Shown here: positions 3,714-53,958 of the stretch, piece by piece
Layout: each line of letters starts with the position of its first letter
Numbering within the stretch: position 1 is the first letter of the stretch
DNA from: a virus
Lineage: Duplodnaviria; Caudoviricetes
Length of the DNA: 64,000 nt
Virus record (IMG/VR): IMGVR_UViG_2645727545_000002
Coordinates: 64,001-128,000 of that record
Direction: 5' to 3' (one strand)
Position numbers and translations under genes: made by a program
Notes under the pieces: model-generated
Told to the model about the DNA's origin: nothing
The model's database searches: none
The model's input: the letters and a program-made list of their open reading frames with translations, nothing else

Positions 3714-4808
3714 TCAATCTTTCAAACCATTTAATATTTCCAATCGTTTCTTGAACATTCCAACATATTCCGGGAAATATTCAAACCACTCATAATTCAC
3801 TTCTTTGATTTGATTTAATCCAATTTTTCCAACAGCATACAATGCAGCTTCTTTCTGGTTGACCTTTTTTCCGAAGCAAGTCTGACAATTAGAACCTTCT
3901 ATTCCATCATATGAGTTAAACGTCTTATTAAAATCCATCAGCGGATGAAGTGAAACTGGCTTGTTGTTTGCATTATTTACCAGAACTCCCCAGTTTCCCC
4001 AATGACGATCGGTATTTCCTACAAGATAGTCAACGATGTTCATCATATAATAATCATGTTTATCTAGCGACAAAATATATTTACGGATATTTCGATCATG
4101 GTTCTGTGAATAAATTTCAAATGCTTCCATAGACACAATGGAAAAGTCCTTTGATGTGATATTTTCACTTATAGTTACCGGTTCTTCAGCAAATACACTT
4201 CTGTTGTATATGACCTGCTTTACATCAAAACACTGACAAATTTTACTTGATAGAAGTTCCTTCTCGACAACTTCTATCCCTCCGTCTTTCAACAGAGAAA
4301 ATCCTTTTTCTGTCCGTTTCCAGGCTTTTGGGAAAACACCATTCGTAGATAAGTCTTTCGCCAGATCTTCATTATTTACCGTATATTGTTTTCCTCGCAG
4401 AGCAATATCTATAAAAATATTTTCAAGATGGTTATCATATAAATTGACTTCAGAAAATGTTATCTTTTCACCTTTATTTCTTACCCAGAAAACATCTGTC
4501 AATGATGTACACCTATATGATAACGCCACTTTTGCTCTATCCTTGTCCGTTACAGCCTGATTCATTCCTATACTGTTCAAAATTTCTTTAGCGTATTTTC
4601 TATCCAATGTGAGAACTCTTGTTGCACACCAATAATTGAAATTTGTAATATTATTAACAAGAGTATCAACATCTTCTTCTTCTTCAAGATATAGGTTATA
4701 CGGCATAAAACTTTTGTAATACACCTTACATCTTCCAGAAGAATCAATTCTTGCAACTCTTCTATCTTTATGCATAATTTCAAAAATATCGCTGTTCATA
4801 TTATACAT
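3714..4808 (-). CDS. HipA/CtkA-like Ser/Thr kinase
   Basis: GVFPKAW, LLKDG, DYLVGNTDRHWGNWG catalytic loop and PLMDFN. Confidence 0.8.
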   Translation of the reverse strand: MYNMNSDIFEIMHKDRRVARIDSSGRCKVYYKSFMPYNLYLEEEEDVDTLVNNITNFNYWCATRVLTLDRKYAKEILNSIGMNQAVTDKDRAKVALSYRCTSLTDVFWVRNKGEKITFSEVNLYDNHLENIFIDIALRGKQYTVNNEDLAKDLSTNGVFPKAWKRTEKGFSLLKDGGIEVVEKELLSSKICQCFDVKQVIYNRSVFAEEPVTISENITSKDFSIVSMEAFEIYSQNHDRNIRKYILSLDKHDYYMMNIVDYLVGNTDRHWGNWGVLVNNANNKPVSLHPLMDFNKTFNSYDGIEGSNCQTCFGKKVNQKEAALYAVGKIGLNQIKEVNYEWFEYFPEYVGMFKKRLEILNGLKD

Positions 4809-18918: not shown

Positions 18919-19128
18919 TTACCATTTATAAATATTTCCTTCAAAGTCATATAAAATTACTGTTTCTCCATCATCAGCAAGTTCCCATTGTGAAATATTT
19001 TCCAATGCATACTCCATTCGCTCAATGTGTGATTCTGGCTTTGCATGATCTGATGTGTTTTTTCCAACAAAAAAGCAACCGATTGCAACGGCTGCTAAAG
19101 TGACTATATATGCAATTTTCTTTTTCAT
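18919..19128 (-). CDS. Small membrane-anchored protein (N-terminus resembles 16114-16491)
   Basis: MKKKIAYIVTLAAVAIGCFFVGKN. Confidence 0.65.
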   Translation of the reverse strand: MKKKIAYIVTLAAVAIGCFFVGKNTSDHAKPESHIERMEYALENISQWELADDGETVILYDFEGNIYKW

Positions 19129-19147
19129 ATGTTTTTCCTCCATTTTA

Positions 19148-19330
19148 TTATCTATGTAATATTAATCCACTTTTTATCATGTCAAAAAACCATTCCTGAA
19201 AGTCATGGTATTCTGTTTTATCTACAATATCACGATAAACCTCTTTGAGCTGATCCTCTGTGAATGATCTGTCCATTACTTCCGGAAGTGATTCCCGGTT
19301 ATCTTCAGAAAAATAATATTTGTTTACCAT
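19148..19330 (-). CDS. Hypothetical protein, first gene of the leftward operon
   Basis: AAGGAG SD; 60 aa. Confidence 0.7.
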   Translation of the reverse strand: MVNKYYFSEDNRESLPEVMDRSFTEDQLKEVYRDIVDKTEYHDFQEWFFDMIKSGLILHR

Positions 19331-19344
19331 CGTCTTAATCTCCT

Positions 19345-20322
19345 TTGCTTATTTGATTATTCGCTGTTTTTATTCTCATCTATGCAAGCCATGTGTGAAA
19401 ATGTTATGCCTTGCATAGTCAAAATAAAAATGAGAGTTGCGCTTTCATCGGGTTAGTTGGCGCTCCCACTGCTCCGGCTCTCTCGTTCCGGCTTATTTGT
19501 TTTCAGTACTCTTTATAATACTTTAGGAAGTTACCGGCTTTTTAACACTCCTTAAAGTGAACCGGTTTCGCTCATTATGTTCGCTCCCTGCCTGCATTTT
19601 CTACCCCGTTCTACGTAGGCTGACGGCTTTTAACTTTTTCGGCTGTTCTCATACCGTGTATAATCTGTTTTAAAAAGGAGATATACAAGCTCCTTAATGT
19701 CAGCACAACTATGAGGCATTGCTGATCTTGAGCCTTTCGGAAGTGTTAGCCGTTCCGATGCTTTTGCAATTCCTAGTTATTTTTATGTGTACTCCTTGCA
19801 ACCGTCACATATCTTTCGCATTGTTTTACTTCCTGGAAAATCTTAATATGGAAGTATTTCACTTGTAAGGACTTACTCGTGTCGTGCCTATACAAGATTT
19901 TGCTTTTTGTAATATTATTTTTTAAATAGTTGACTTATGCAAAATCATGTTCGCTTGTCAATCTTATATGCGTTTGAGTGTCTACATTTTTCAGAACCGC
20001 CTAACCTGTGGACACTACAATAATTGTAGCGGTTATATTTTTCATATAACAGATTCAAGGTACGTTTCATTTCGCTTCACTCTTTCCCTTATAAGATAGA
20101 GAAATCACCTTATACCTACATTTCGCATAATTATTTTACTGTTAGCAATACAAACTATTTTCGTATCGGTTTTAAGTTTAGGATTTTGTAATTGACTTTT
20201 ACCAAAGAAATGACTATAATAGAATATGTCAATAACACATAGAGTTATTTGTACATTAAAGAGGTTGATGAACTTTGGTCGGTTAGCAACCTCTTTTTTG
20301 TTTAACTCGTTTCCCTTAACTT
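19345..20322 (-). ncRNA. ~1-kb structured leader or large ncRNA (unidentified)
   Basis: No ORF of 60 aa or more; over 10 hairpins on a purine-rich strand; boxA-like GTACCTTGAA; sigmaA promoter at its 5' end. Confidence 0.6.
20192..20299 (+). ncRNA. Small antisense RNA (~75 nt) with its own promoter and terminator
   Basis: TTGACT-17-TATAAT (20192-20220), then AAAGAGGTTG...ACTTTGGTCGG...CAACCTCTTTTTT. Confidence 0.65.
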
Positions 20323-20328
20323 GATTAT

Positions 20329-20357
20329 ATCTTACTACATTTTTATGTAGTTGTCAA
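20329..20357 (-). promoter_or_regulatory. Leftward sigmaA promoter with a palindromic operator in the spacer
   Basis: TTGACA-17-TAAGAT; ACTACAT-N4-ATGTAGT. Confidence 0.75.
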
Positions 20358-20381
20358 TATATTTTTTAAAGTTTTTTATTT

Positions 20382-20597
20382 TTATTTTGTAGTTTTATCA
20401 TCTGGAATATACTCTAATATATCTCCGGGTTGACAATTTAAAACTTTACATATTGAATCAATCGTTGTAAGGTTTACTGGTCTATTTTTTGAAATACTTG
20501 CCATAGTGACAGGACTACACCCAATCGCATTTTGCAGATCAATTTTTTTCATGCCCTTACGATTGAGCATATCAATTAATTTATAATATGCTATCAC
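20382..20597 (-). CDS. Cro/C1-type HTH_26 regulator
   Basis: VNLTTIDSICKVLNCQPGDILEY. Confidence 0.85.
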   Translation of the reverse strand: MIAYYKLIDMLNRKGMKKIDLQNAIGCSPVTMASISKNRPVNLTTIDSICKVLNCQPGDILEYIPDDKTTK

Positions 20598-20867
20598 GTT
20601 TTAACCTCCTATTATATAATAAAGTAATTATACCAAAAATACTCCGGCATTGCCATACTCTATTATAGCCACATCTTCAGTTGTCAAAGTACAAAAGTTT
20701 GGGGATCACTCAGTCAGATTTGACTTTGTTTTTCAGATATGCTACACTTTAGTTGACTGATTTATGTATTGTGCAGTGTATCTGTACACCCTATACAAGT
20801 TTTACGGCTGGTATCTTGTTTACAATCTCATTTGTTATCTGTATGCCTGTCGTTTAACTTGTATTTA

Positions 20868-20909
20868 TAATAGCATAGGTTTAACCTATAGTCAATAGGT
20901 AAAACCTGT
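20868..20909 (-). promoter_or_regulatory. Second leftward promoter with operators
   Basis: TTGACT-17-TATTAT; ATAGGTTAAACCTAT palindrome in the spacer and a related TAGGTAAAACCTG next to it. Confidence 0.65.
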
Positions 20910-20983
20910 TTTATTGTTTTAATTTAGTATAATATTATTTTATTAATTATTGTTATGTGTTTTTTGAAAGAAAGTGGGATATT

Positions 20984-21160
20984 ATGTCATATAATGCAAA
21001 AGCTGACGAAAATTATAGAAAAAAGTGTAAAACAATCGGACTCAAATTTACTTTGAATGAATTAGATTTTTATGAAAATATTGTTAAACATTGTGAAAAT
21101 AACAATTTATCTCTACAGGGATATATAAAAAATCTAATACGCAAAGATTTAGACAAGTAA
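20984..21160 (+). CDS. Small ribbon-helix-helix-like regulator
   Basis: NYRKKCKTIGLKF...LSLQGYIKNLIRKDL. Confidence 0.6.
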   Translation: MSYNAKADENYRKKCKTIGLKFTLNELDFYENIVKHCENNNLSLQGYIKNLIRKDLDK

Positions 21161-21220
21161 GAAAATACTGCTATTGCTTCATATTTTAAAAATAAAAGAT
21201 TTAGATAAAGAGGTATTACA

Positions 21221-21487
21221 ATGAATAAACATGATTTTTATACAATTATTACATCTATTTTAAGTGCAAAAAATTTAACTTTTGCCGATCTGGCAAAATA
21301 TTTAGAAATAAGTGAATTGAGTTTAGCAAGAAATATAACTAAAAACAAAACAATTAATATTGACTTATTGTTAAAAATATTTGATTTTTTAGATATATCT
21401 TTTGTGGATAATAAAACTGGTAATATAATTACGCTCAAAACCAATGAAGATATTTTATCAGACGCACTAAATGATATTAACTCGTAA
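21221..21487 (+). CDS. XRE-family HTH protein
   Basis: LTFADLAKYLEISELSLAR...LLKIFDFLD. Confidence 0.7.
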   Translation: MNKHDFYTIITSILSAKNLTFADLAKYLEISELSLARNITKNKTINIDLLLKIFDFLDISFVDNKTGNIITLKTNEDILSDALNDINS

Positions 21488-21682
21488 CAAAACAATAATT
21501 TACATATAAAATAAGAAGCAATAGTGTATTGTATAAAGTGTTAAAATCTTTTTTATATGTATTATTATGCTATGACCCTTTAGACGGCAACGCATTACTA
21601 CTATTATATAGATAGTATGTGCTAATTTGATTTTATTGTGATATAATTATTTATATAATGATAGTAAAGGAATAATATAATA

Positions 21683-21886
21683 ATGTTTTTATATAAAATA
21701 GATATATTAGATACACTCAAAGAAAAAGGATACAATACAAATAGGTTGAGAAAAGAAAAGCTACTAGGAGAAAACGCAATACAATCAATACGGAATAATA
21801 AAATAGTCGGAATGAGTGCGCTTGAAAAGATATGCAGTTTATTAGACTGTCAGCCAGGTGATTTGATTGAGTATATAAAAGAATAG
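21683..21886 (+). CDS. Cro/C1-type HTH_26 regulator
   Basis: LEKICSLLDCQPGDLIEY. Confidence 0.85.
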   Translation: MFLYKIDILDTLKEKGYNTNRLRKEKLLGENAIQSIRNNKIVGMSALEKICSLLDCQPGDLIEYIKE

Positions 21887-21887
21887 A

Positions 21888-21944
21888 ATTACATTACTAA
21901 TAATGTAATTTGCATTGACTTTACATTATTAGTAATGTAATATG
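21888..21944 (+). promoter_or_regulatory. Rightward promoter with two palindromic operators
   Basis: ATTACATTACTAATAATGTAAT and TTACATTATTAGTAATGTAA; TTGACT-17-TAATAT. Confidence 0.7.
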
Positions 21945-21987
21945 ATTGTAGTTAGTAAATGTCTCATATATTATTAAGAAAGGATGA

Positions 21988-22308
21988 TTGTACTTGATTG
22001 ACATTGAAGTATTGCAGAAATTAAATGTACCTAATAGGATAGTATTGACAAAACATGCAAAGGAAAGGTTGATAGAAAGAAATATCGCTATCACGGATAT
22101 TATAAACGGCATTAAGACTGGCGAAATTATAAAACAATATGAAGATGATAAACCTTTACCTAGCTGTTTGATACTAGGATTTTCGGTAAATAATAAATAT
22201 ATTCATATTGTAGTTAGTCACGATAGTGATTATATTTATTTGATAACAGCATACTACCCTAACACAGATCAGTGGGAAATGGATTTCAAAACAAGAAAGA
22301 AGGTTTGA
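21988..22308 (+). CDS. DUF4258 (RelE-like) putative toxin
   Basis: TKHAKERL...YEDDKPLPSCLILG...IHIVV...ITAYYP. Confidence 0.85.
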   Translation: MYLIDIEVLQKLNVPNRIVLTKHAKERLIERNIAITDIINGIKTGEIIKQYEDDKPLPSCLILGFSVNNKYIHIVVSHDSDYIYLITAYYPNTDQWEMDFKTRKKV

Positions 22309-22312
22309 TAAT

Positions 22313-22549
22313 ATGTTATGTATTGAATGTGGCGCAGTTACTGAAAAGGGATATACAACGGACGTTACGGACTTAGGAAACTGCCTTGTTATTATTCGGA
22401 ATGTACCATGCTATAAATGTACAGAGTGTAATGAGATTATTTATACTGGAGACGTTGTACAAGAGATAGAAAAAATTGTTAATACGGCCAAACAATGTTT
22501 TCAGGAAGTATCTATCATTGATTATAATAATTACAAACAAGTTGCATAA
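22313..22549 (+). CDS. YgiT-type zinc finger (MqsA-like) putative antitoxin
   Basis: CIECG...VIIRNVPCYKCTECNE. Confidence 0.85.
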   Translation: MLCIECGAVTEKGYTTDVTDLGNCLVIIRNVPCYKCTECNEIIYTGDVVQEIEKIVNTAKQCFQEVSIIDYNNYKQVA

Positions 22550-22554
22550 ATATG

Positions 22555-22587
22555 ATAGCGATACTGTTATGGTGTCGCTATTTTTTG
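22555..22587 (+). terminator. Intrinsic terminator
   Basis: ATAGCGATAC...GTGTCGCTAT followed by a T run. Confidence 0.7.
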
Positions 22588-22815
22588 TATGTTATCGTGT
22601 CAGTGTGTATGTTAGTGTATATTAACTTGTGTTATGACTGTATAGTTATAGTATGTTATATGATACACATGTAATACTTGTGTAATAATAGTGAGTATAG
22701 TTGTGTGTTTGTGTGGACTGCATCACGTTGTTGTGTAGGATGTTTAGGTAAACTAAACTAGGAATTATTACTTTTATTAGTGTAGTATTGTTTTGTGTAT
22801 TGTTTTGATGTATAT

Positions 22816-23050
22816 TTATACACAAATTATTGCATAGTTATACACATGATGTGGATAAGTTTAATTTTAAAAAATGGTATAAAAGTGGTGATGTGGTACT
22901 CATTTGTAGGTTATTTTGGATTGCAAGTGGGGAATATGTGTTGGTTTTGGTTTGATTTTGTGTGTCTAGTGGGAAATTTTGTTTTGAGGTAAGTTTTAAG
23001 GCAAAAAGTTATCCACATATTATTTTGAGTTATCCACATTATGTGGATAA
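22816..23050. promoter_or_regulatory. Cluster of six DnaA boxes
   Basis: TTATACACA at 22816 and 22838; TTATCCACA at 23009 and 23030; reverse TGTGGATAA at 22850 and 23042. Confidence 0.75.
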
Positions 23051-23849
23051 GTTTTTTATTATTAAAAATTTTCACCAAAAATCCGAACTTGTCCAGAAAT
23101 CCATGAATTTGAGTCTAAAATCCCACCTGATGCAATGTTTCATTGCTACGTAAAAGACACACACAAAAATCAACAGATTGTCCATAAAATCTCTATATAC
23201 CGCCCCCTGTTTTCAGATCTTTACAATCAAAACTTTTGCACTTTTCATCAATGTGCCAAAAGTCCCTAAAGCAACATAATAGTGTAGTATTATGCCATTC
23301 CATAATAGGGGCGGTATTAAACATTTTTGACGTATGTTATGCATCAAATATAGCAGGTATGGGTTCTATCCACACCTCACTACCAAAATTTCGACCTCCG
23401 ATTTCCACACCAAAATTTTCATCTCCCACTTCAAAAAAACTCAAAAATTACCAAAAAATACTTCGGTAACTCTCTCGACTAACAAGGCATAAACACTGCA
23501 TTTCTACCATTCTAAACAGTCCAAAAATAACCAAAATCCACCACAATATCCATTCAAACCCCAAACAAACTCTTGCCGTTACTGCATTTTCCCGAACTCA
23601 ACTTATATTCCAAAAAATTACATATAAAACACACTATCAAAATCCAGAAAACCACGTCGCCTTATCCCTCAGTGTACCCACATAAATACTGGCATCCCCC
23701 GGTATAAAAACATTACACAAAATTACCTCTCTACCGAAGTGCCATATTTTCAAAATTACTGACACAAAAAATAAGCAGCCAATTCCTAAGATAAGTCCTT
23801 AAAAACCAACTGCTATTATTCATAATCACCCTATAATCATCCAATACCT

Positions 23850-24278
23850 TCAATAATATTTATTAAATATATCCCCATCTATATCACTAATATCATGAAC
23901 CGGTACCTCAGTTCCATTTTCAAATATTACAACATTTCTGTATTCGTGTACCTTCTTCACTCTCCCACTCATTGTAATATACTTTCCACCATCTTTCTTT
24001 AAATCTTTTTCAAAATATGTGATTCTAACATCCGGATCAACATCGCCGTCATCTAAACATTTTCTTAAAATACTCACTCTCTCATTCAGTCTATTCAAAA
24101 CATCCTCATCAAATTCAATCCTTTTATCTGTTAATCTTGCAGTCTCTTTAATTTCTGCATCATAACCTGTCAATGCAGCAAATGGAGAAAATTGAGCAGC
24201 TCTATCTCGCATACTCATTTGAGGATATTTTTTAGAGACAAAATGTGGCAAATCAATAATATCATCGTATTTACCCAT
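23850..24278 (-). CDS. YolD-like protein (Y-family polymerase partner)
   Basis: YDDIIDLPH...MSMRDRAAQFSPFAAL. Confidence 0.85.
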   Translation of the reverse strand: MGKYDDIIDLPHFVSKKYPQMSMRDRAAQFSPFAALTGYDAEIKETARLTDKRIEFDEDVLNRLNERVSILRKCLDDGDVDPDVRITYFEKDLKKDGGKYITMSGRVKKVHEYRNVVIFENGTEVPVHDISDIDGDIFNKYY

Positions 24279-26986: not shown

Positions 26987-27501
26987 TTAAAATTCGATGC
27001 TACATTTTAATCTTATTGAAAAATCAATATCAAACACTTTTCTTTCAAGAATAATCCCCTCTAATGGATCAAATTCAATTTTATGTGTCGAATCTTCAAA
27101 CACACCAACTACTTCTGCTTTAATATTTTCTTTTTTAGACAACTGGTTGAGTGTATCCATATATCCATAATAATAATCCTGATCGTATATATTATAATAT
27201 ACTCTCACACGATAATCACCTTGTCGATTAAAAATTCCAACATTCTCCCTATATTCGTATTTCTTATATTTTCCAAATAAATAACTAGATGGATATAAAT
27301 CGTCAGCATAAAATTTCATATATCTTTTTCCGCATATTGTTTCGTAATCTCCATTTTTAGCCTTTTCTCTGATCACATTTTTAATATGATCTATTGTGCT
27401 TATCGCCCATTTCTTTCCATCATTATATGATTCTATCTTCTTTTCTGCAGCAGCTTCTTCCGGTGTTTTTGATATTTCATTCAATTCATCTAAAAACTCA
27501 T
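26987..27501 (-). CDS. Hypothetical protein
   Basis: 165-aa ORF; AGGAG SD with ATG near 27501. Confidence 0.6.
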
Positions 27502-27687
27502 AGCGCTACTCTCCTACTTCTTTTGATATTTACATAATAACACAACAGTGTAAGTTTTCACAGATATTTTTATATTGATAAGAGAATAAATGTATGAAAT
27601 AAAGAAGCCGTTAAAATATTTTAATAAAAGGAGAAATGATATGAAGAAATTATAAAAAATTTTTTCTATTTCAATTTAAATTGTATC

Positions 27688-28138
27688 TTTGCGTCAGCAA
27701 AGACTTTGCGAAGCAAAGTGAAACGGAGACACGAAGAAAGGGTCGCTTGCGGCTCTTTCTGAAGTGGATCCAATATTACCTAGATCTCTCTATATATAAG
27801 TAATTACAAATTTATATAAAAATTATTTATAAAGAGAGAATTATTAACTGGGGGAAAGAAGACCAAATTCATAAGTCTTACTACGCAGCTTGTTCGCCAA
27901 GGCTCACAACCAGCTAGTGCGACTAAATGAATTATGATCTTTTTTGCATTTCCCCCAGACCCCCTTTGCGTACTATTTTATGGATAAAAGAGATAATTTT
28001 TTTCAACTAAAATCCTTGTAAACCCTTATAAACACTGGGTTTGTGACGAAAAACATCATTCAAAGTCTCCCTATATTATATATATATTAGGGAGAAATGG
28101 AATGATGCGAAAACTCTGTAAACCTTATAAACACTGGG
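27688..28138. other. Palindrome-rich non-coding block (candidate replication origin or control region)
   Basis: CTTTGCG..GCAAAG tandem palindromes; 110-nt hairpin 27848-27958; palindrome 28054-28107 flanked by two AAACC(C)TTATAAACACTGGG copies. Confidence 0.5.
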
Positions 28139-28195
28139 GAAATTGACATTTTAGGTGTGCAAAAAATGAAAAAAACTAATTTAAGGAGAAAACAC

Positions 28196-29301
28196 ATGAA
28201 CAAATTAAAATATCAAAAAAGGAAAAATTACAGAAAAAAAGTTAGTAGATTTATACGGAAGTGATGCACAAAAAAAATCTTATAAAGAATATGGTAGATT
28301 CATTGGTAACTATAAAAAGACTTTACTTACAAAAATGTCTCGATATTGTAACATTGAAGATTTAGGTGGTAGAACATATAGAATCACAAAAGTATACGAC
28401 TATCCTCTTCCATCAAATTTCAATAAGATGACAAAATCCTTGTATCAATATATTGTACCACTATTACTTACAAATCTGATTAATGGTCACGATGAGAATA
28501 ATAAAATTGATATTACAGTCGGTAAATGGGCTAGAGAAATAAATATGGTAAACAAAAATTACAACCTTGTTAAATACAACAAAGAAGACACTAGTAAAGA
28601 AACACAATGCTCTCTTGATACCATTAATGAATTTTATGACAAAGCAGATGACATGATTGAATGGTACATAACAAATGCACTTGATTATTTAAAATCTGCA
28701 GGATTAGTTATCTGGAGAGAAGTTTATAGAGTAAACGAAGAAATATCAAGCGGTAAAAATATTATTGATGAAAGCGGGAATATACACGTTGATATTTCTA
28801 TTGATAGTCATCAAGCATCTGAAGATGAAATGAACTACTACTCTCATTGTGTTTCAATTGCTGATAAAGCAGCAAAAATAGAAAATGCTGGAGAACGATA
28901 TTATAGCAAAAAATCAAAATTATTTGGAGAAGTATTAAAGAAAGAACTATATAAAAAGAAAAATCAAATGTGTTTTCAAAACATATGAAGCATATTATGT
29001 AGATCTTAATAAATGTAATTTTATATTAAAACAGTTTGGTAAATTCAAAATGAATAATTTAATAAGTGAATTTAATAAAGAGTTTACAGATTTATTGGTT
29101 GGAAATGCAGAAAAAAGGTTTGATAAAAATCCGGATAAATATTTTTCTTATGCGGAAAAGGATGACTACAGCTTATGTTTTCAAAATTTATGCGAAATAA
29201 CGATTGATAAAAATACAGAATATCTTGGAAACAGAATAAGAGAAAAAACAATTGACGATAATTATACCTTAAAAATCACATCATCAAAGAAAGGAAAATA
29301 G
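28196..29301 (+). CDS. Hypothetical protein (frameshifted), possible replication initiator
   Basis: AAGGAG SD with ATG 28196; fragments 28335-28988 and 29050-29301 join at poly-A runs; function inferred from position only. Confidence 0.55.
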
Positions 29302-37698: not shown

Positions 37699-38303
37699 TA
37701 AGCACTTGCTTATAAATACAAATAACTCAGTGCAGATTGGCTTGTCACCATGCTGAGAATATATGAATAGTGAGTTACGGTATAATGCGATAGTTTTATA
37801 CTGCAGCTTCTGGAATGATGTGAATCATAAACAGAAAGACGGAAACTGTCAAAACTAAATATATGTACAATAATATATTGCCGTAAAACGCAATTGCCAG
37901 ATCGCTGACATAATAGACGACTCCAGTGGAGTAATAATCGTGATGCCTGTATCGGTGGAATGTTACAGAGAGATAAGTAGCGAAAATCCAAATAAGTCAG
38001 TTGCGTCGTTGATCGGAAGAAATTCCAGTATAAGATCTGTCGAATGTACGAGTAGCCCAAAGTGACGTGAGATTAATACATAAAGAACAAAAAAATTAAA
38101 TCTTATTATGAATTTTCTTAATACGCTGAATGACATGGGTGAAAGTTTCTCGTAATCAGTCGAGGCTACAATTGCTGTTTATCAGATGTAAAGGAAGTCT
38201 AAGGGTAGCTCCTTATTCTCAGCCTTTACAAGTAGTGGCGGAATATTATGACGATATATTTGAGTAGGAAGAAGTTCCATTTGTATTTATAATCAAGTGC
38301 TTA
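37699..38303 (+). ncRNA. Large structured RNA, probably ROOL
   Basis: 25-bp terminal helix (37699-37723 with 38279-38303, one mismatch) enclosing ~605 nt with no credible ORF; internal GCTGAATG..GTGAAAG; adjacent to tRNAs. Confidence 0.7.
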
Positions 38304-38394: not shown

Positions 38395-38466
38395 AGCCCC
38401 ATCGCCAAGCGGTAAGGCACAGGACTTTGACTCCTGCATTCAGTAGTTCGAATCTACTTGGGGCTG
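38395..38466 (+). tRNA. tRNA-Gln(UUG)
   Basis: AGCCCCA/TGGGGCT acceptor stem, CTTTGAC anticodon loop, TTCGAAT T-loop. Confidence 0.9.
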
Positions 38467-38746: not shown

Positions 38747-38821
38747 TGCAGGCGAGTGGAACGGATTACTACGTCAGACCCATAATCTGAAAATACTGGG
38801 TTCGACTCCCAGGCTCTGCAA
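38747..38821 (+). tRNA. tRNA with CAU anticodon (Met/fMet-like, divergent)
   Basis: TCAGA-CCCATAA-TCTGA; CTGGG-TTCGACT-CCCAG; bulged acceptor stem. Confidence 0.7.
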
Positions 38822-51171: not shown

Positions 51172-53958
51172 ATGGCTACATCGAGAAAAATGACAGAACA
51201 AGAAGTTGCAAATGAGAAAGCAGAAAGGTTAATGAACGGTGTTGCTTATTGGGCAGCTTTTTACAGAAAAAACCCACAACGTTTTTGTAAAGATTATTTA
51301 AATATAACTCTCAAATTATTCCAAAAGATATTGCTATATGCAATGATGTGCAATAATTATTTTATGTATATTGCCTCTCGTGGACAGGGTTTGTAAAAAT
51401 ATCACGAGTGGAGGAAATAACAAATGAGTAAATATGTTTACAATAAAGATTATTTCGAAAAAAATTAACACATCAGAAAAAGCATATTGGCTAGGTTTTT
51501 TATATGCAGATGGATGTATTACAAGATTTTATAAGGGAGAAGTATTAAAATCTATGTCTTTAGAAATTACTTTAAAAGACGCAGATTGTGAACATCTTAT
51601 TAAATTTAAAAACGCTTTAGAAAGTAATATTCCTATTCAACATAGAATTATTACCGGGAAATATAAAGCAGATAGAATAGTTGTTAATTGCACAAAAATA
51701 TGTAATGATTTAATCAAATTAGGTTGTACTCCGACTAAAAGTCTAACATTAGAATTTCCTAAAAAAGATATAATACCTCAAGATTTTATAAGAGACTTTA
51801 TTAGAGGTTATTTTGATGGAGATGGTGGTGTATCTTATACTGAAGGTAAATATTATAATAATGCTAGAAAAAAATATTACAAACAGCATCACTATCGATG
51901 CTATTTTTGTGGAAACATACAATTTTTAACTGAATTAAAAAAAATATTGAATTCTAATGGAATTAAAACATCTGATCTAAAAAAAGACAATAGAAGTAAT
52001 GCAATTAATATTTATATATATGGAAGAGAAAATATAGAGAAATTTAAAAATTATATATATACAGAGGGGTGTGTGAACTTATCAAGAAAATTTGATAAGT
52101 TCTTTTTTATTTCCCACAATAGCGATCTTCATATAAATAGATAACGCCATGTTTAGCCCTGTCTAAATTGGGGAAAATCGGTGAAGACTAAATTTATTTA
52201 AAATATAAAATAAATATGTTAATACCGAGATAACTTAATAGATTTCGTAAGGCTATTAAGCATTGTAGAGAGTAGAGATTGAATAAATATAATATCTCCA
52301 AGAGTCCCCAACTACATTATTGTAGAAAATGTACTCCAAGCTGAGTTGGAAATGACCAACTGATGAAAATGAAGGAAACTTCCAGAGCATAGGATAAAAA
52401 ACCTATGGTTAATAACATACTGAAAACATGGCTTACTGCTCTATTCTGCGTCGTTCGTTGCATATTATTCCCAGGAAGCAAGATATGCATTGCTTCTTCA
52501 ACAAGACCACAGGCGAATCAAGTCCTTTTGAAAATAACCGATGATTTTTGTAAAAACTATGGATGGGGTTCAGATAATTTGAATAATGAAATAGGGTACA
52601 AATCAGTTGGTGCGAATAATGCGGTGATTGAATTTAAAAATGGGTCATGGATAAGGGTTGTGACCGCATCTGACAGTGGACGAGGCGCACGTGCAAATAT
52701 TCTAATTGTAGACGAATTTCGTATGGTTGATTTAAATGTTATTAATACTGTTCTTAGAAAATTCTTAACAGCTCCGCGCACCCCAGGATATTTAAATATA
52801 AAAAAATATTCTCATCTAACTGAGCGTAATAAAAGAAATATTTATGTCCAGCGCATGGTATAAATCTCATTGGTCATTTGAAAAAGCGAAAGCATATGTC
52901 GTAAATTTTTTTAGATAATAGTAAAAAATATTTTATTTGCGGACTACCGTATCAAATAGCAATCAAAGAAAATTTATTATCAAAAGAACAGGTTGAAGAT
53001 GAATTTTCTGAGCAAGACTTTGATCAAACATCTTTTGATATGGAGATGGGATGTTTATGGTTTGGTGATACGGACGGTTCGTTTTTTACATTTGATGATT
53101 TATCTAAATGTAGAAAAATAAAAACACCGATGGAGACACATTTTTTCAAAAATAAAAAAATACCAGACTTAGCCCTTAATGAAAAAAGAATTATGTCTGT
53201 AGATATTGCATTAATGGGTTCTAGTAAATCAAAGAATAATGATGCAAGTTCAATTTTAATTAATAGTGCTCTTCCAACAGAAAGCAATGAGTACATTTCA
53301 AATATTGTATTCTTAGAAAATCATGAAGGACTTACAACTGACGAATTAGGAATTATTGTCATGAGATTGTTCTATAGGTATAAATGTACAGATTTGGTAA
53401 TCGATACAAATGGAGCCGGTTTAGGTGTATATGATTTTATTATAAAGAATCAGTTAGATCAAGAAACAGGTGATGTGTATAAAGCTCTTACTTGTTGTAA
53501 TGATAAAGACATGGCAGAAAGATGTAAAGTCGAATCGGCAAATCCATGTATATGGTCGATAAAAGCCAATGCTGCTTTTAATAACGAGATGTGTGTTATG
53601 CTTCGTGCAGGAATACAAAATGGGAAGATCAATCTTCTTGTATCAGAATTTGAAGCAGAGGAAATATTAAGAGACAAGATTAAGTCATATTCAAAGATGC
53701 AATCTTTTGAACAATTAAAATATAAAACACCATATATTCAAACAACATTGCTGATATATGAACTCATAAATTTACAGCATAAGATAGAAGGAACAAACAA
53801 TTAAAATAAAGGAAAAATCTGGTATGAGAAAAGATAGATATAGTTCTTTGGGATATAATTATCACATATTAAGAACATTAGAAAAAAATCTTAACACAGA
53901 TTCTTATTCTTCAGATTTTTCAAATTTTACCCCATGTATTTCTTCTATATCATTTTAG
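51172..53958 (+). CDS. terL: Terminase large subunit; exons 51172-51390 and 52423-~53958 (frameshifts)
   Basis: Spliced Walker A ASRGQG|KTW; [13 protein letters not shown] Walker B; nuclease SVDIA...NDAS and RKDRYSS. Confidence 0.9.
51391..52422 (+). ncRNA. Group I intron in terminase, with the ORF in the P1 loop
   Basis: 5' exon GACAGGGT pairs with GCCCTGTC (~52156-52163); GCCATGTTT pairs with 3' exon AAACATGGC; P7 GAGTA/TACTC; terminal G52422. Confidence 0.88.
51424..52144 (+). CDS. Intron-encoded LAGLIDADG homing endonuclease
   Basis: [11 protein letters not shown] and [10 protein letters not shown]; GGAGG SD; one poly-A frameshift. Confidence 0.9.

Follow-up and report, generated by a model that had tools for sequence, protein, structure and literature searches.

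We analysed a 64,000-nucleotide stretch of viral DNA (hereafter the window), bases 64001-128000 of the IMG/VR virus record IMGVR_UViG_2645727545_000002, which is 136 kb long and about 81% complete. The region under study, 19345-20322 on the minus strand, is a leader of about 1 kb situated downstream of a 71-amino-acid helix-turn-helix (HTH) gene (20382-20597) and upstream of the first gene (19148-19330) of a leftward array, a 19-kb accessory operon. The whole window has a G+C content of about 31% and contains genes for a Y-family polymerase and for tRNAs as well as a ROOL RNA; its nearest protein clusters come from Bacillota, the protein atlas giving no more than 'Bacillota'. Genes run on the minus strand left of about 20600 and on the plus strand right of about 26000, with small HTH genes in between, a layout that by its gene order is of the phage switch region type. 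Comparison with related loci identifies the leader as a real non-coding RNA with three separately folding domains (M2, M3 and M4), whose structure is conserved on the transcribed strand. The features of the locus, in the direction of transcription, are the following.

20382-20597, minus strand: HTH regulator gene of the Cro/C1 type, 71 amino acids (Pfam HTH_26, E 6e-19), directly upstream of the leader promoter.
20329-20357, minus strand: early leftward promoter TTGACA-17-TAAGAT, with a predicted transcription start at about 20322.
20171-20322, minus strand: M1, the 5' end of the leader (leader nucleotides 1-152), with a fold z of -3.97 and 92-98% conservation in L004 and L016.
20192-20303, plus strand: predicted convergent antisense RNA gene, with the promoter TTGACT-17-TATAAT at 20192-20220 and a predicted start at about 20227.
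19928-20114, minus strand: M2, a closed domain of 187 nucleotides, with the closing stem P1, then P2, P2a, P3 (two hairpins) and a separate 3' hairpin P6.
19657-19900, minus strand: M3, about 245 nucleotides and eight helices, with an invariant 13-nucleotide hairpin loop and a pairing of the H7 loop with downstream sequence that forms an H-type pseudoknot.
19421-19656, minus strand: M4, about 235 nucleotides, ending in a terminator-like stem (19431-19469) and a U-tract (19421-19430).
19370-19427, minus strand: M5, a long hairpin of about 20 bp (-19 kcal/mol, z = -5.69), whose 5' arm includes the U-tract and which forms a constant junction ahead of the ribosome-binding site.
19328-19346, minus strand: ribosome-binding site AAAGGAG (19340-19346) and ATG (19328-19330) of the first gene, a segment common to almost all leader types.
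19148-19330, minus strand: first gene of the operon, 60 amino acids, of no known family, with a homologue also after M3 in the distant loci L164 and L156.

The comparison set consisted of about 60 related loci (numbered here with an L) from phage contigs of 87-166 kb and from gut metagenomes. They were gathered with two protein queries, the 60-amino-acid first protein and the HTH protein, and on the DNA side with three exact patterns and a single look-up by identity. A leader query of 992 nucleotides was run by BLAST against these loci, and the metagenomes were searched for modules by exact-pattern scans. M3 was matched in about 25 IMG/VR contigs and M2 in 18. Two scans of species-representative genomes gave no match to the M3 DNA pattern or to the 60-amino-acid protein profile, and no close relative was present among 50,697 phage records or among plasmids. 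The matches obtained in SPbeta and Javan202 span the AT-rich promoter area only and are uninformative, and L169 was rejected as a relative, its pattern match being due to chance.

A preliminary description of this DNA had proposed that about 1 kb without an open reading frame (ORF) encodes a large structured RNA not described before. The longest minus-strand ORF in the region is indeed of 41 amino acids, and gene callers assigned no gene to identical leaders in metagenomes. The G+C content of the leader is 0.37 compared to 0.29-0.30 in its flanks, and its minimum free energy is -222.6 kcal/mol, the z-score being -4.96 for the minus strand against -3.05 for its complement. No Rfam family reached its gathering score in the leader of the window, where relaxing the search to E <= 10 gave chance-level hits only, and neither EAR nor any other Rfam family gave a gathering-score match in the leader or in 25 related loci. 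When the copies in the related loci were examined for covariation, the helices of M2, M3 and M4 were found to be compensated. The pairs changed on both sides number 8 in M2, 12 in M3 and 4 in M4, counts that were reached by 0-2 of 500 shuffles, and controls in which the pairing partners of the three domains were slid gave at most 2 such pairs. The compensatory changes are thus far beyond both kinds of control, and the proposal of an undescribed structured non-coding RNA was borne out. Since many of the G-U pairs would be C-A mismatches on the other strand, the conserved structure is that of the transcribed strand.

The same alignments bear on whether the region could be decayed coding sequence, or hold small unannotated protein genes. 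Short minus-strand ORFs of 41, 40, 31 and 30 codons do exist, and genuine small ORFs occur in the same region of relatives. Nevertheless, the substitutions preserve base pairs, not codons, and the length changes are not multiples of 3: M2 measures 187, 223 or 231-232 nucleotides, and the insertions and deletions in M3 are of about 13, 5 and 3 nucleotides. In L017 the 41-codon ORF is shortened to 27 codons and begins at another start, the long form has it disrupted, and the ORFs have no convincing ribosome-binding sites. A coding origin is consequently extremely unlikely. The RNA domains match no known family and literature searches returned no earlier description of them, while the kinds of mechanism proposed below are already known. 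Other sorts of regulatory element were also looked for in the leader. GGA, as expected in a CsrA-type sponge, is not enriched (13 observed, 14.9 expected), nor is the recurrent motif CUGAAAA, and a search for repeat arrays of the CRISPR, ToxI or iteron kind found none. A gene-junction palindrome that occurs elsewhere in this genome was rejected as a leader element: it has only one hit, with two mismatches, in the leader, and its window-wide count of 33 barely exceeds the 24.2 expected, 3 of 100 shuffles being as high.

BLAST of the leader returned blocks of 90-100% identity separated by unrelated sequence, and across the related loci these resolve into five modules in fixed order. In leader coordinates, counted leftward from 20322, M1 occupies nucleotides 1-152, M2 about 209-395, M3 about 423-666, M4 about 667-902 and M5, which overlaps the U-tract of M4, about 896-953; the ribosome-binding segment follows. 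The order in relatives is promoter, M1, M2, in most of them an ORF of 37 codons (orf37), M3, M4 or a substitute, M5 and first gene; it is constant while the content varies. M4 can be replaced by other segments (X, N3b), and in L005/L153, L003/L007, L002 and the L147 group a wholly different ORF-free sequence of 0.8-1.9 kb stands ahead of the same first gene. Some phages that differ by 9% in M3 are 100% identical in M4, which points to recent exchange at the module borders, and M3 and M4 are linked in the distant lineages L136 and L168. The idea of one large RNA therefore stands only in part: M3 and M4 do occur together in distant lineages, but the domains are separable and have been exchanged or replaced between related phages. 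In L013 (1120-1266), the strong Shine-Dalgarno sequence of the 37-codon ORF can pair with a complementary run 8 nucleotides upstream, and a terminator-like hairpin follows the ORF.

For M2, four short-form variants gave 54 predicted pairs in which 100% of the cells are paired; none of 500 column shuffles was as good, and sliding the partners by 1-3 columns left 32-43% paired. A long form of 231 nucleotides has a longer insert in place of the two inner hairpins and provides a third compensated version of P2, and no change occurs in the internal loops that lie between P1, P2 and P3. Lengths differ by 44-45 and 8 nucleotides, which, together with the many G-U pairs, excludes coding and fixes the strand. 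A covariance model of the domain (R1) had M2 copies only among its matches, and a hidden M2-like fold in the alternative leaders, which was considered as a candidate, was not detected by it. The element GTACCTTGAA (20054-20063), which had been read as boxA-like, must be reinterpreted: it is base-paired as one arm of P3, and unrelated sequence lies at this place in the long M2. It is not a conserved single-stranded boxA of the nut type. The stem ACCGC/GCGGT, also listed in the preliminary description, is broken in L017, and the covariation instead pairs GGCGGUU with the upstream GAAACGU in helix P3. Most of the other stems of that list (GTTATAT/ATATAAC, CTACAAT/ATTGTAG, (TA)CTTCC/GGAAG(TA), TCGGAA/TTCCGA, TCAGCA/TGCTGA, AAGGAG/CTCCTT and ACCGGT/GCCGGT) are kept and compensated in relatives. 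GAGAG/CTCTC with its inner GCGC/GCGC lies in an invariant stretch, where an alternative pairing of GUGGGAG with CUCUCAU is equally possible.

Variable stems around invariant junctions and loops are also what a sensor of a small molecule or ion would present. One or more domains (M2, or M4 with its terminal stem) might then be riboswitch-like and, depending on the physiological state of the host, set either termination at the leader end or the translation of the small ORF. In relatives, M2 directly precedes the 37-codon ORF, whose Shine-Dalgarno sequence could be sequestered by the upstream complementary run, and other leader types hold a small conserved motif within a stem with a U-run directly after it. 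However, no Rfam riboswitch matched even at E <= 10, no ORF follows M2 in this window, and a competing helix first seen in M3 is lost in divergent lineages. The confinement to one phage group (the IMG/VR contigs counted above) would also be unusual for a metabolite sensor, and we consider a riboswitch-like function improbable.

M3 was followed through about six lineages, down to 69% identity, which were recovered by pattern from the invariant hairpin loop. Its hand-built structure comprises 41 pairs and is 96% paired, with none of 500 shuffles as good and at most 2 both-side changes in the slid controls. Helix H8 covaries, and the AAGGAG/CUCCUU hairpin occurs in three compensated variants; its loop pairs with conserved downstream sequence through a covarying helix, which gives the H-type pseudoknot. 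Because this hairpin is followed by no U-run in three lineages, it is a structural helix and not a terminator. Its earlier candidacy as a terminator in competition with an antiterminator helix was dropped, the divergent lineages keeping the hairpin without a U-run and losing the competing helix.

In the same way, five variants of M4 gave 64 pairs and a structure that is 98.8% paired, and a copy of about 65-70% identity after M3 in L168 adds further compensations. The terminal stem of M4 (19431-19469) is followed by UUUUUAUUUU. The terminal part is invariant, and the covariation support is that of the rest of the domain. The variants of M5 differ only by changes that preserve G-U pairs on the minus strand. 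A strong hairpin with a U-rich run, 20-110 nucleotides before the shared ribosome-binding segment, was present in all sampled leader types that have this segment (M4, X, N3b, N5 and the L147 type). A promoter scan of 19000-24000 gave no good promoter between the terminal hairpins and the first gene, which suggests that the operon relies on transcription coming through the leader.

The first protein itself corresponds to the C-terminal half of a 121-amino-acid protein in many relatives (for example L016:3806-4171), whose N-terminal half has cysteine pairs like those of a zinc ribbon; in the window the shared ribosome-binding segment leads into the shorter form instead. No Pfam or PHROG family was found for the early small proteins. 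Just ahead of the first gene in other leaders we observed a small conserved motif, CGGUAnACGG ... CCAGnCCGGC ... GUUCAyGAC (L013, about 1825-1885; L003, about 3880-3945; L164, about 1540-1605), which is absent from this window and has no Rfam match. Its outer enclosing stem covaries in the three lineages, with a U-run directly after it in two, and judging from this arrangement it could be a ligand- or protein-controlled terminator.

At the other end of the leader, the near-consensus promoter of the preliminary description was recovered as a sigma-A-type TTGACA-17-TAAGAT on the minus strand (20357-20329), with 10 of 12 matches. Its spacer (20335-20350, minus strand) contains a 6-4-6 dyad whose two halves are altered symmetrically in L004 (CTACAT..ATGTAG to CTACAC..GTGTAG), a pattern that makes the dyad a likely operator of the dimeric-repressor type. 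Not mentioned in the preliminary description is a predicted antisense RNA, convergent with the leader and overlapping its 5' end. Its promoter faces that of the leader, has 11 of 12 matches and is the best in the 5-kb scanned region (19000-24000); both hexamers are invariant in relatives of the WIN type. About 30 nucleotides past the predicted start, a 10-bp stem (20258-20296) followed by a T-run forms a canonical intrinsic terminator on the plus strand. The predicted product is an RNA of about 77 nucleotides (-22 kcal/mol, z = -3.33), complementary to leader nucleotides of about 20-96, and its target in M1 would be the 10-bp hairpin at 20258-20296. The leader thus has the arrangement of a countertranscript system: it contains a convergent promoter with its own intrinsic terminator, and the short RNA predicted from these is complementary over its full length to the 5' region of the sense RNA. 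No convincing stem with a U-run, as in a sense-strand attenuator, was found immediately downstream of the antisense target in the sense RNA.

The layout of M1 recurs beyond its sequence. M1b, the unrelated 5' module of most relatives, has an identical layout, three perfectly compensated stem variants and a conserved convergent promoter, and the type of 5' module tracks that of the upstream HTH protein, the 71-amino-acid form occurring with M1 and the 70-amino-acid form with M1b. The Rfam family ctRNA_pT181 (RF00242) matched the plus strand at 20219-20311 with 35.1 bits (E 0.01), below its gathering score of 56, and the antisense RNA is therefore not a member; M1b gave no match to this family.

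The geometry of a structured sense RNA of about 0.9 kb with a roughly 77-nucleotide antisense RNA over its nucleotides 20-96 (approximately) is like that of RNA II and RNA I, and a ParB-like/DUF6551 protein is encoded in the operon. The pair could be imagined as a ColE1-type replication primer and inhibitor of a phage-plasmid. The sense RNA, however, leads into a ribosome-binding site and a 19-kb operon and not into an origin. The GC-skew switch coincides with the change in gene orientation, so that no origin is marked by the skew alone, and the replacement of whole leaders in close relatives would hardly be tolerable for an essential origin. A replication role is very unlikely.

The constant position of the leader, its antisense unit, its end resembling a terminator and the absence of an internal promoter together lead us to favour, tentatively and at somewhat less than even chance, a modular structured 5' leader of the early leftward operon that gates transcription, or read-through, into this operon. 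The operator and the antisense RNA would limit early transcription, the antisense RNA pairing with the nascent leader and lowering productive early transcription as plasmid countertranscripts do. Most transcripts would stop at the terminal hairpin (19421-19430), yielding an RNA of about 0.9 kb, and expression of the 19-kb operon would require read-through. Any of the structured domains, singly or in combination, could promote this in cis, either by themselves or together with a protein of the phage or of the host, in the manner of conAn2, put or EAR, and M5 may serve as a site where a double-strand RNase cuts the leader off the mRNA.

Several observations weigh against such a gate. Transcript starts, ends and read-through are all deduced here from sequence. 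M2 is missing in several relatives that retain the same first gene, where covariance model R1 finds no hidden copy, and whole leaders are swapped for unrelated sequence; therefore no single domain can be essential. M2 and M3 are separated in most relatives by a 37-codon ORF that looks translated and has a strong ribosome-binding site, which makes M3 and M4 intra-operonic there and no leader in the strict sense. The hairpin at the end of M3 has no U-tract in three lineages, the terminal stem of M4 has a 17-nucleotide loop and does not vary, and the most divergent lineage, L164, has no U-run at the hairpin beside the first gene, its canonical terminator standing about 170 nucleotides before that gene. 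On the operon strand only about 5 terminator-like sites were found in 19 kb, one of them inside coding sequence, so that processive antitermination is not obviously needed. It is because of the deduced transcript ends and read-through, the dispensable M2, the interchangeable leaders and the few same-strand terminators that our confidence in the gate stays below one half.

The preliminary description had suggested, more narrowly, a processive antiterminator of the put or EAR kind. The leader may be one: its position behind an early promoter and the terminator-like hairpin that ends nearly every leader type are in favour, while the absence of M2 from several relatives, the few strong same-strand terminators in the operon and the lack of a boxA are against. 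In its most specific form, the idea would be that M3-M4, joined in most relatives by M2, represent a previously unknown class of large cis-acting RNA with a pseudoknot, by which the host RNA polymerase is rendered resistant to terminators as it enters the early operon. They would then be the phage equivalent of conAn2 and the fourth antitermination system based on RNA, with the invariant 13-nucleotide loop of M3 as contact site and the swappable modules as host- or phage-specific versions. We regard this form as unlikely, with perhaps one chance in a handful of being right.

The terminator-like end also allows a different view, in which the unit from promoter to terminator (about 20322 to 19421) encodes one separate, stable non-coding RNA of about 0.9 kb, or a precursor that is cut into several RNAs, acting in trans on a target in host or phage like ROOL, GOLLD and skipping-rope, with the operon merely sharing its promoter. 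The unit has its own promoter and terminator-like end, which in L164 is a canonical terminator 170 nucleotides before the first gene, and M5 resembles a double-strand RNase site able to release the RNA. In every domain the 5' end pairs with the 3' end and so closes it, and the loops and junctions do not vary, as in RNAs that bind ligands or proteins; the exchange of domains is cassette-like (the identical M4 beside the 9% different M3), and the same phage group has other orphan RNAs, ROOL in this window and skipping-rope in the early operon of relatives. On the other hand, the domains were never found outside this single position and order, there is no promoter of any quality between the terminator and the first gene, and no target or partner was identified. 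This trans-acting RNA is the main alternative to the cis-acting gate, though a doubtful one, with a little under one chance in three by our estimate.

Whichever of these applies, three RNA domains with good comparative support and no Rfam entry occupy the first-transcribed position in a group of phages of gut Bacillota with genomes of 90-165 kb. If the leader controls read-through, it joins the very few known antiterminators that are RNAs (put, EAR, conAn2) as a phage case and gives a handle on the timing of the 19-kb accessory operon in such phages; if it acts in trans, the domains are new phage RNA 'accessory genes' that are swapped like cassettes. Either way, the system is compact and testable, with its promoter, antisense RNA, three domains and terminator all packed into 1 kb, and the natural swap variants can serve as controls.

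Other RNA and DNA elements were observed in these phages. A full-length ROOL RNA (321 bits) lies in the window at 37702-38297 on the plus strand, with tRNA genes adjoining at 38395-38466 and 38748-38820; this phage therefore has a second, known large orphan RNA. Skipping-rope RNA (RF02924, 76.6 bits) is absent from the window and present in the early operons of relatives (L013:2696-2776, L008:5390-5470, L009:3876-3956, L133:3867-3947 and L141:2882-2962), in L013 between a PBECR3-type nuclease gene and a small HTH-like gene. Another ORF-free stretch of the window, 850 nucleotides between divergent genes (27485-28334, plus strand), has a fold z of -6.58 relative to shuffles and several long perfect hairpins, and contains twice a motif of about 25 nucleotides with UUAUAAACACUGGG at its end. 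Additionally, an isolated DNA match at about 52221-52417 (plus strand) shows 82% identity over about 200 nucleotides to a Clostridium perfringens phage and 96% over 77 nucleotides to the jumbo Bacillus phages AR9 and PBS1, where it is annotated within a gyrase/topoisomerase gene; it might be a mobile intron or homing element.

Among known systems, ROOL, GOLLD and skipping-rope share with the leader complex conserved structures, an unknown function and carriage by phages of Bacillota. They are usually beside tRNA genes or free-standing and are widespread, whereas the domains described here are confined to the early leader within a single phage group and are not matched by the models of these RNAs.

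The 5' end of the leader resembles the plasmid countertranscripts (the ctRNA of pT181, and RNAIII of pIP501/pAMbeta1 with CopR) in its short antisense RNA with stem-loop and U-tail, in the convergent promoter inside the regulated leader and in the small HTH repressor gene just upstream. It differs in that no pairing-induced attenuator terminator is recognisable and in that the target is a phage early operon and not a rep gene.

RNase III processing hairpins are known in phage early transcripts, as R0.3 of T7 and in SP82 of Bacillus subtilis, and M5 resembles them in being long and imperfectly paired and in separating an early leader from the gene that comes first. It is only a candidate for cleavage, is far shorter than the leader as a whole and accounts for just the last 60 nucleotides of it.

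EAR is a cis-acting RNA of about 120 nucleotides. With put it shares a nascent structured RNA shortly downstream of an early phage promoter, with terminators ahead of the early genes, as in the leader described here. In lambdoid phages terminators precede the early genes and must be read through, and the put RNA of HK022, about 70 nucleotides with two stem-loops just downstream of the early promoter, acts on RNA polymerase without protein factors (PMC9378689). The position is comparable, M2 beginning about 209 nucleotides from the predicted start and putR about 270 nucleotides from its own. M2, M3 and M4, of 187-245 nucleotides each, are nevertheless multi-helix domains with different folds, far from the size and the two stem-loops of put; M2 is dispensable in relatives, and the leader has no Rfam match to EAR and no likeness to put.

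The conAn2 RNA of the bipartite conAn system, found in pLS20 and other Gram-positive conjugative plasmids, is about 300 nucleotides long, poorly conserved, structured and cis-acting; it heads the long conjugation operons of Bacillota plasmids and confers antitermination, RNA polymerase then passing several terminators of the operon (PMC8191782). It follows the conAn1 gene and needs the ConAn1 protein to act at a distance, whereas the gene upstream of the leader is a Cro-type HTH regulator, and the conAn operon contains many terminators where few were found here. The two have no likeness in sequence, the leader being three times longer and modular. Nevertheless, both RNAs stand near the start of a very long operon in a mobile element of Bacillota, and the conAn promoter is tightly repressed, which makes conAn2 comparable to the leader in its setting.

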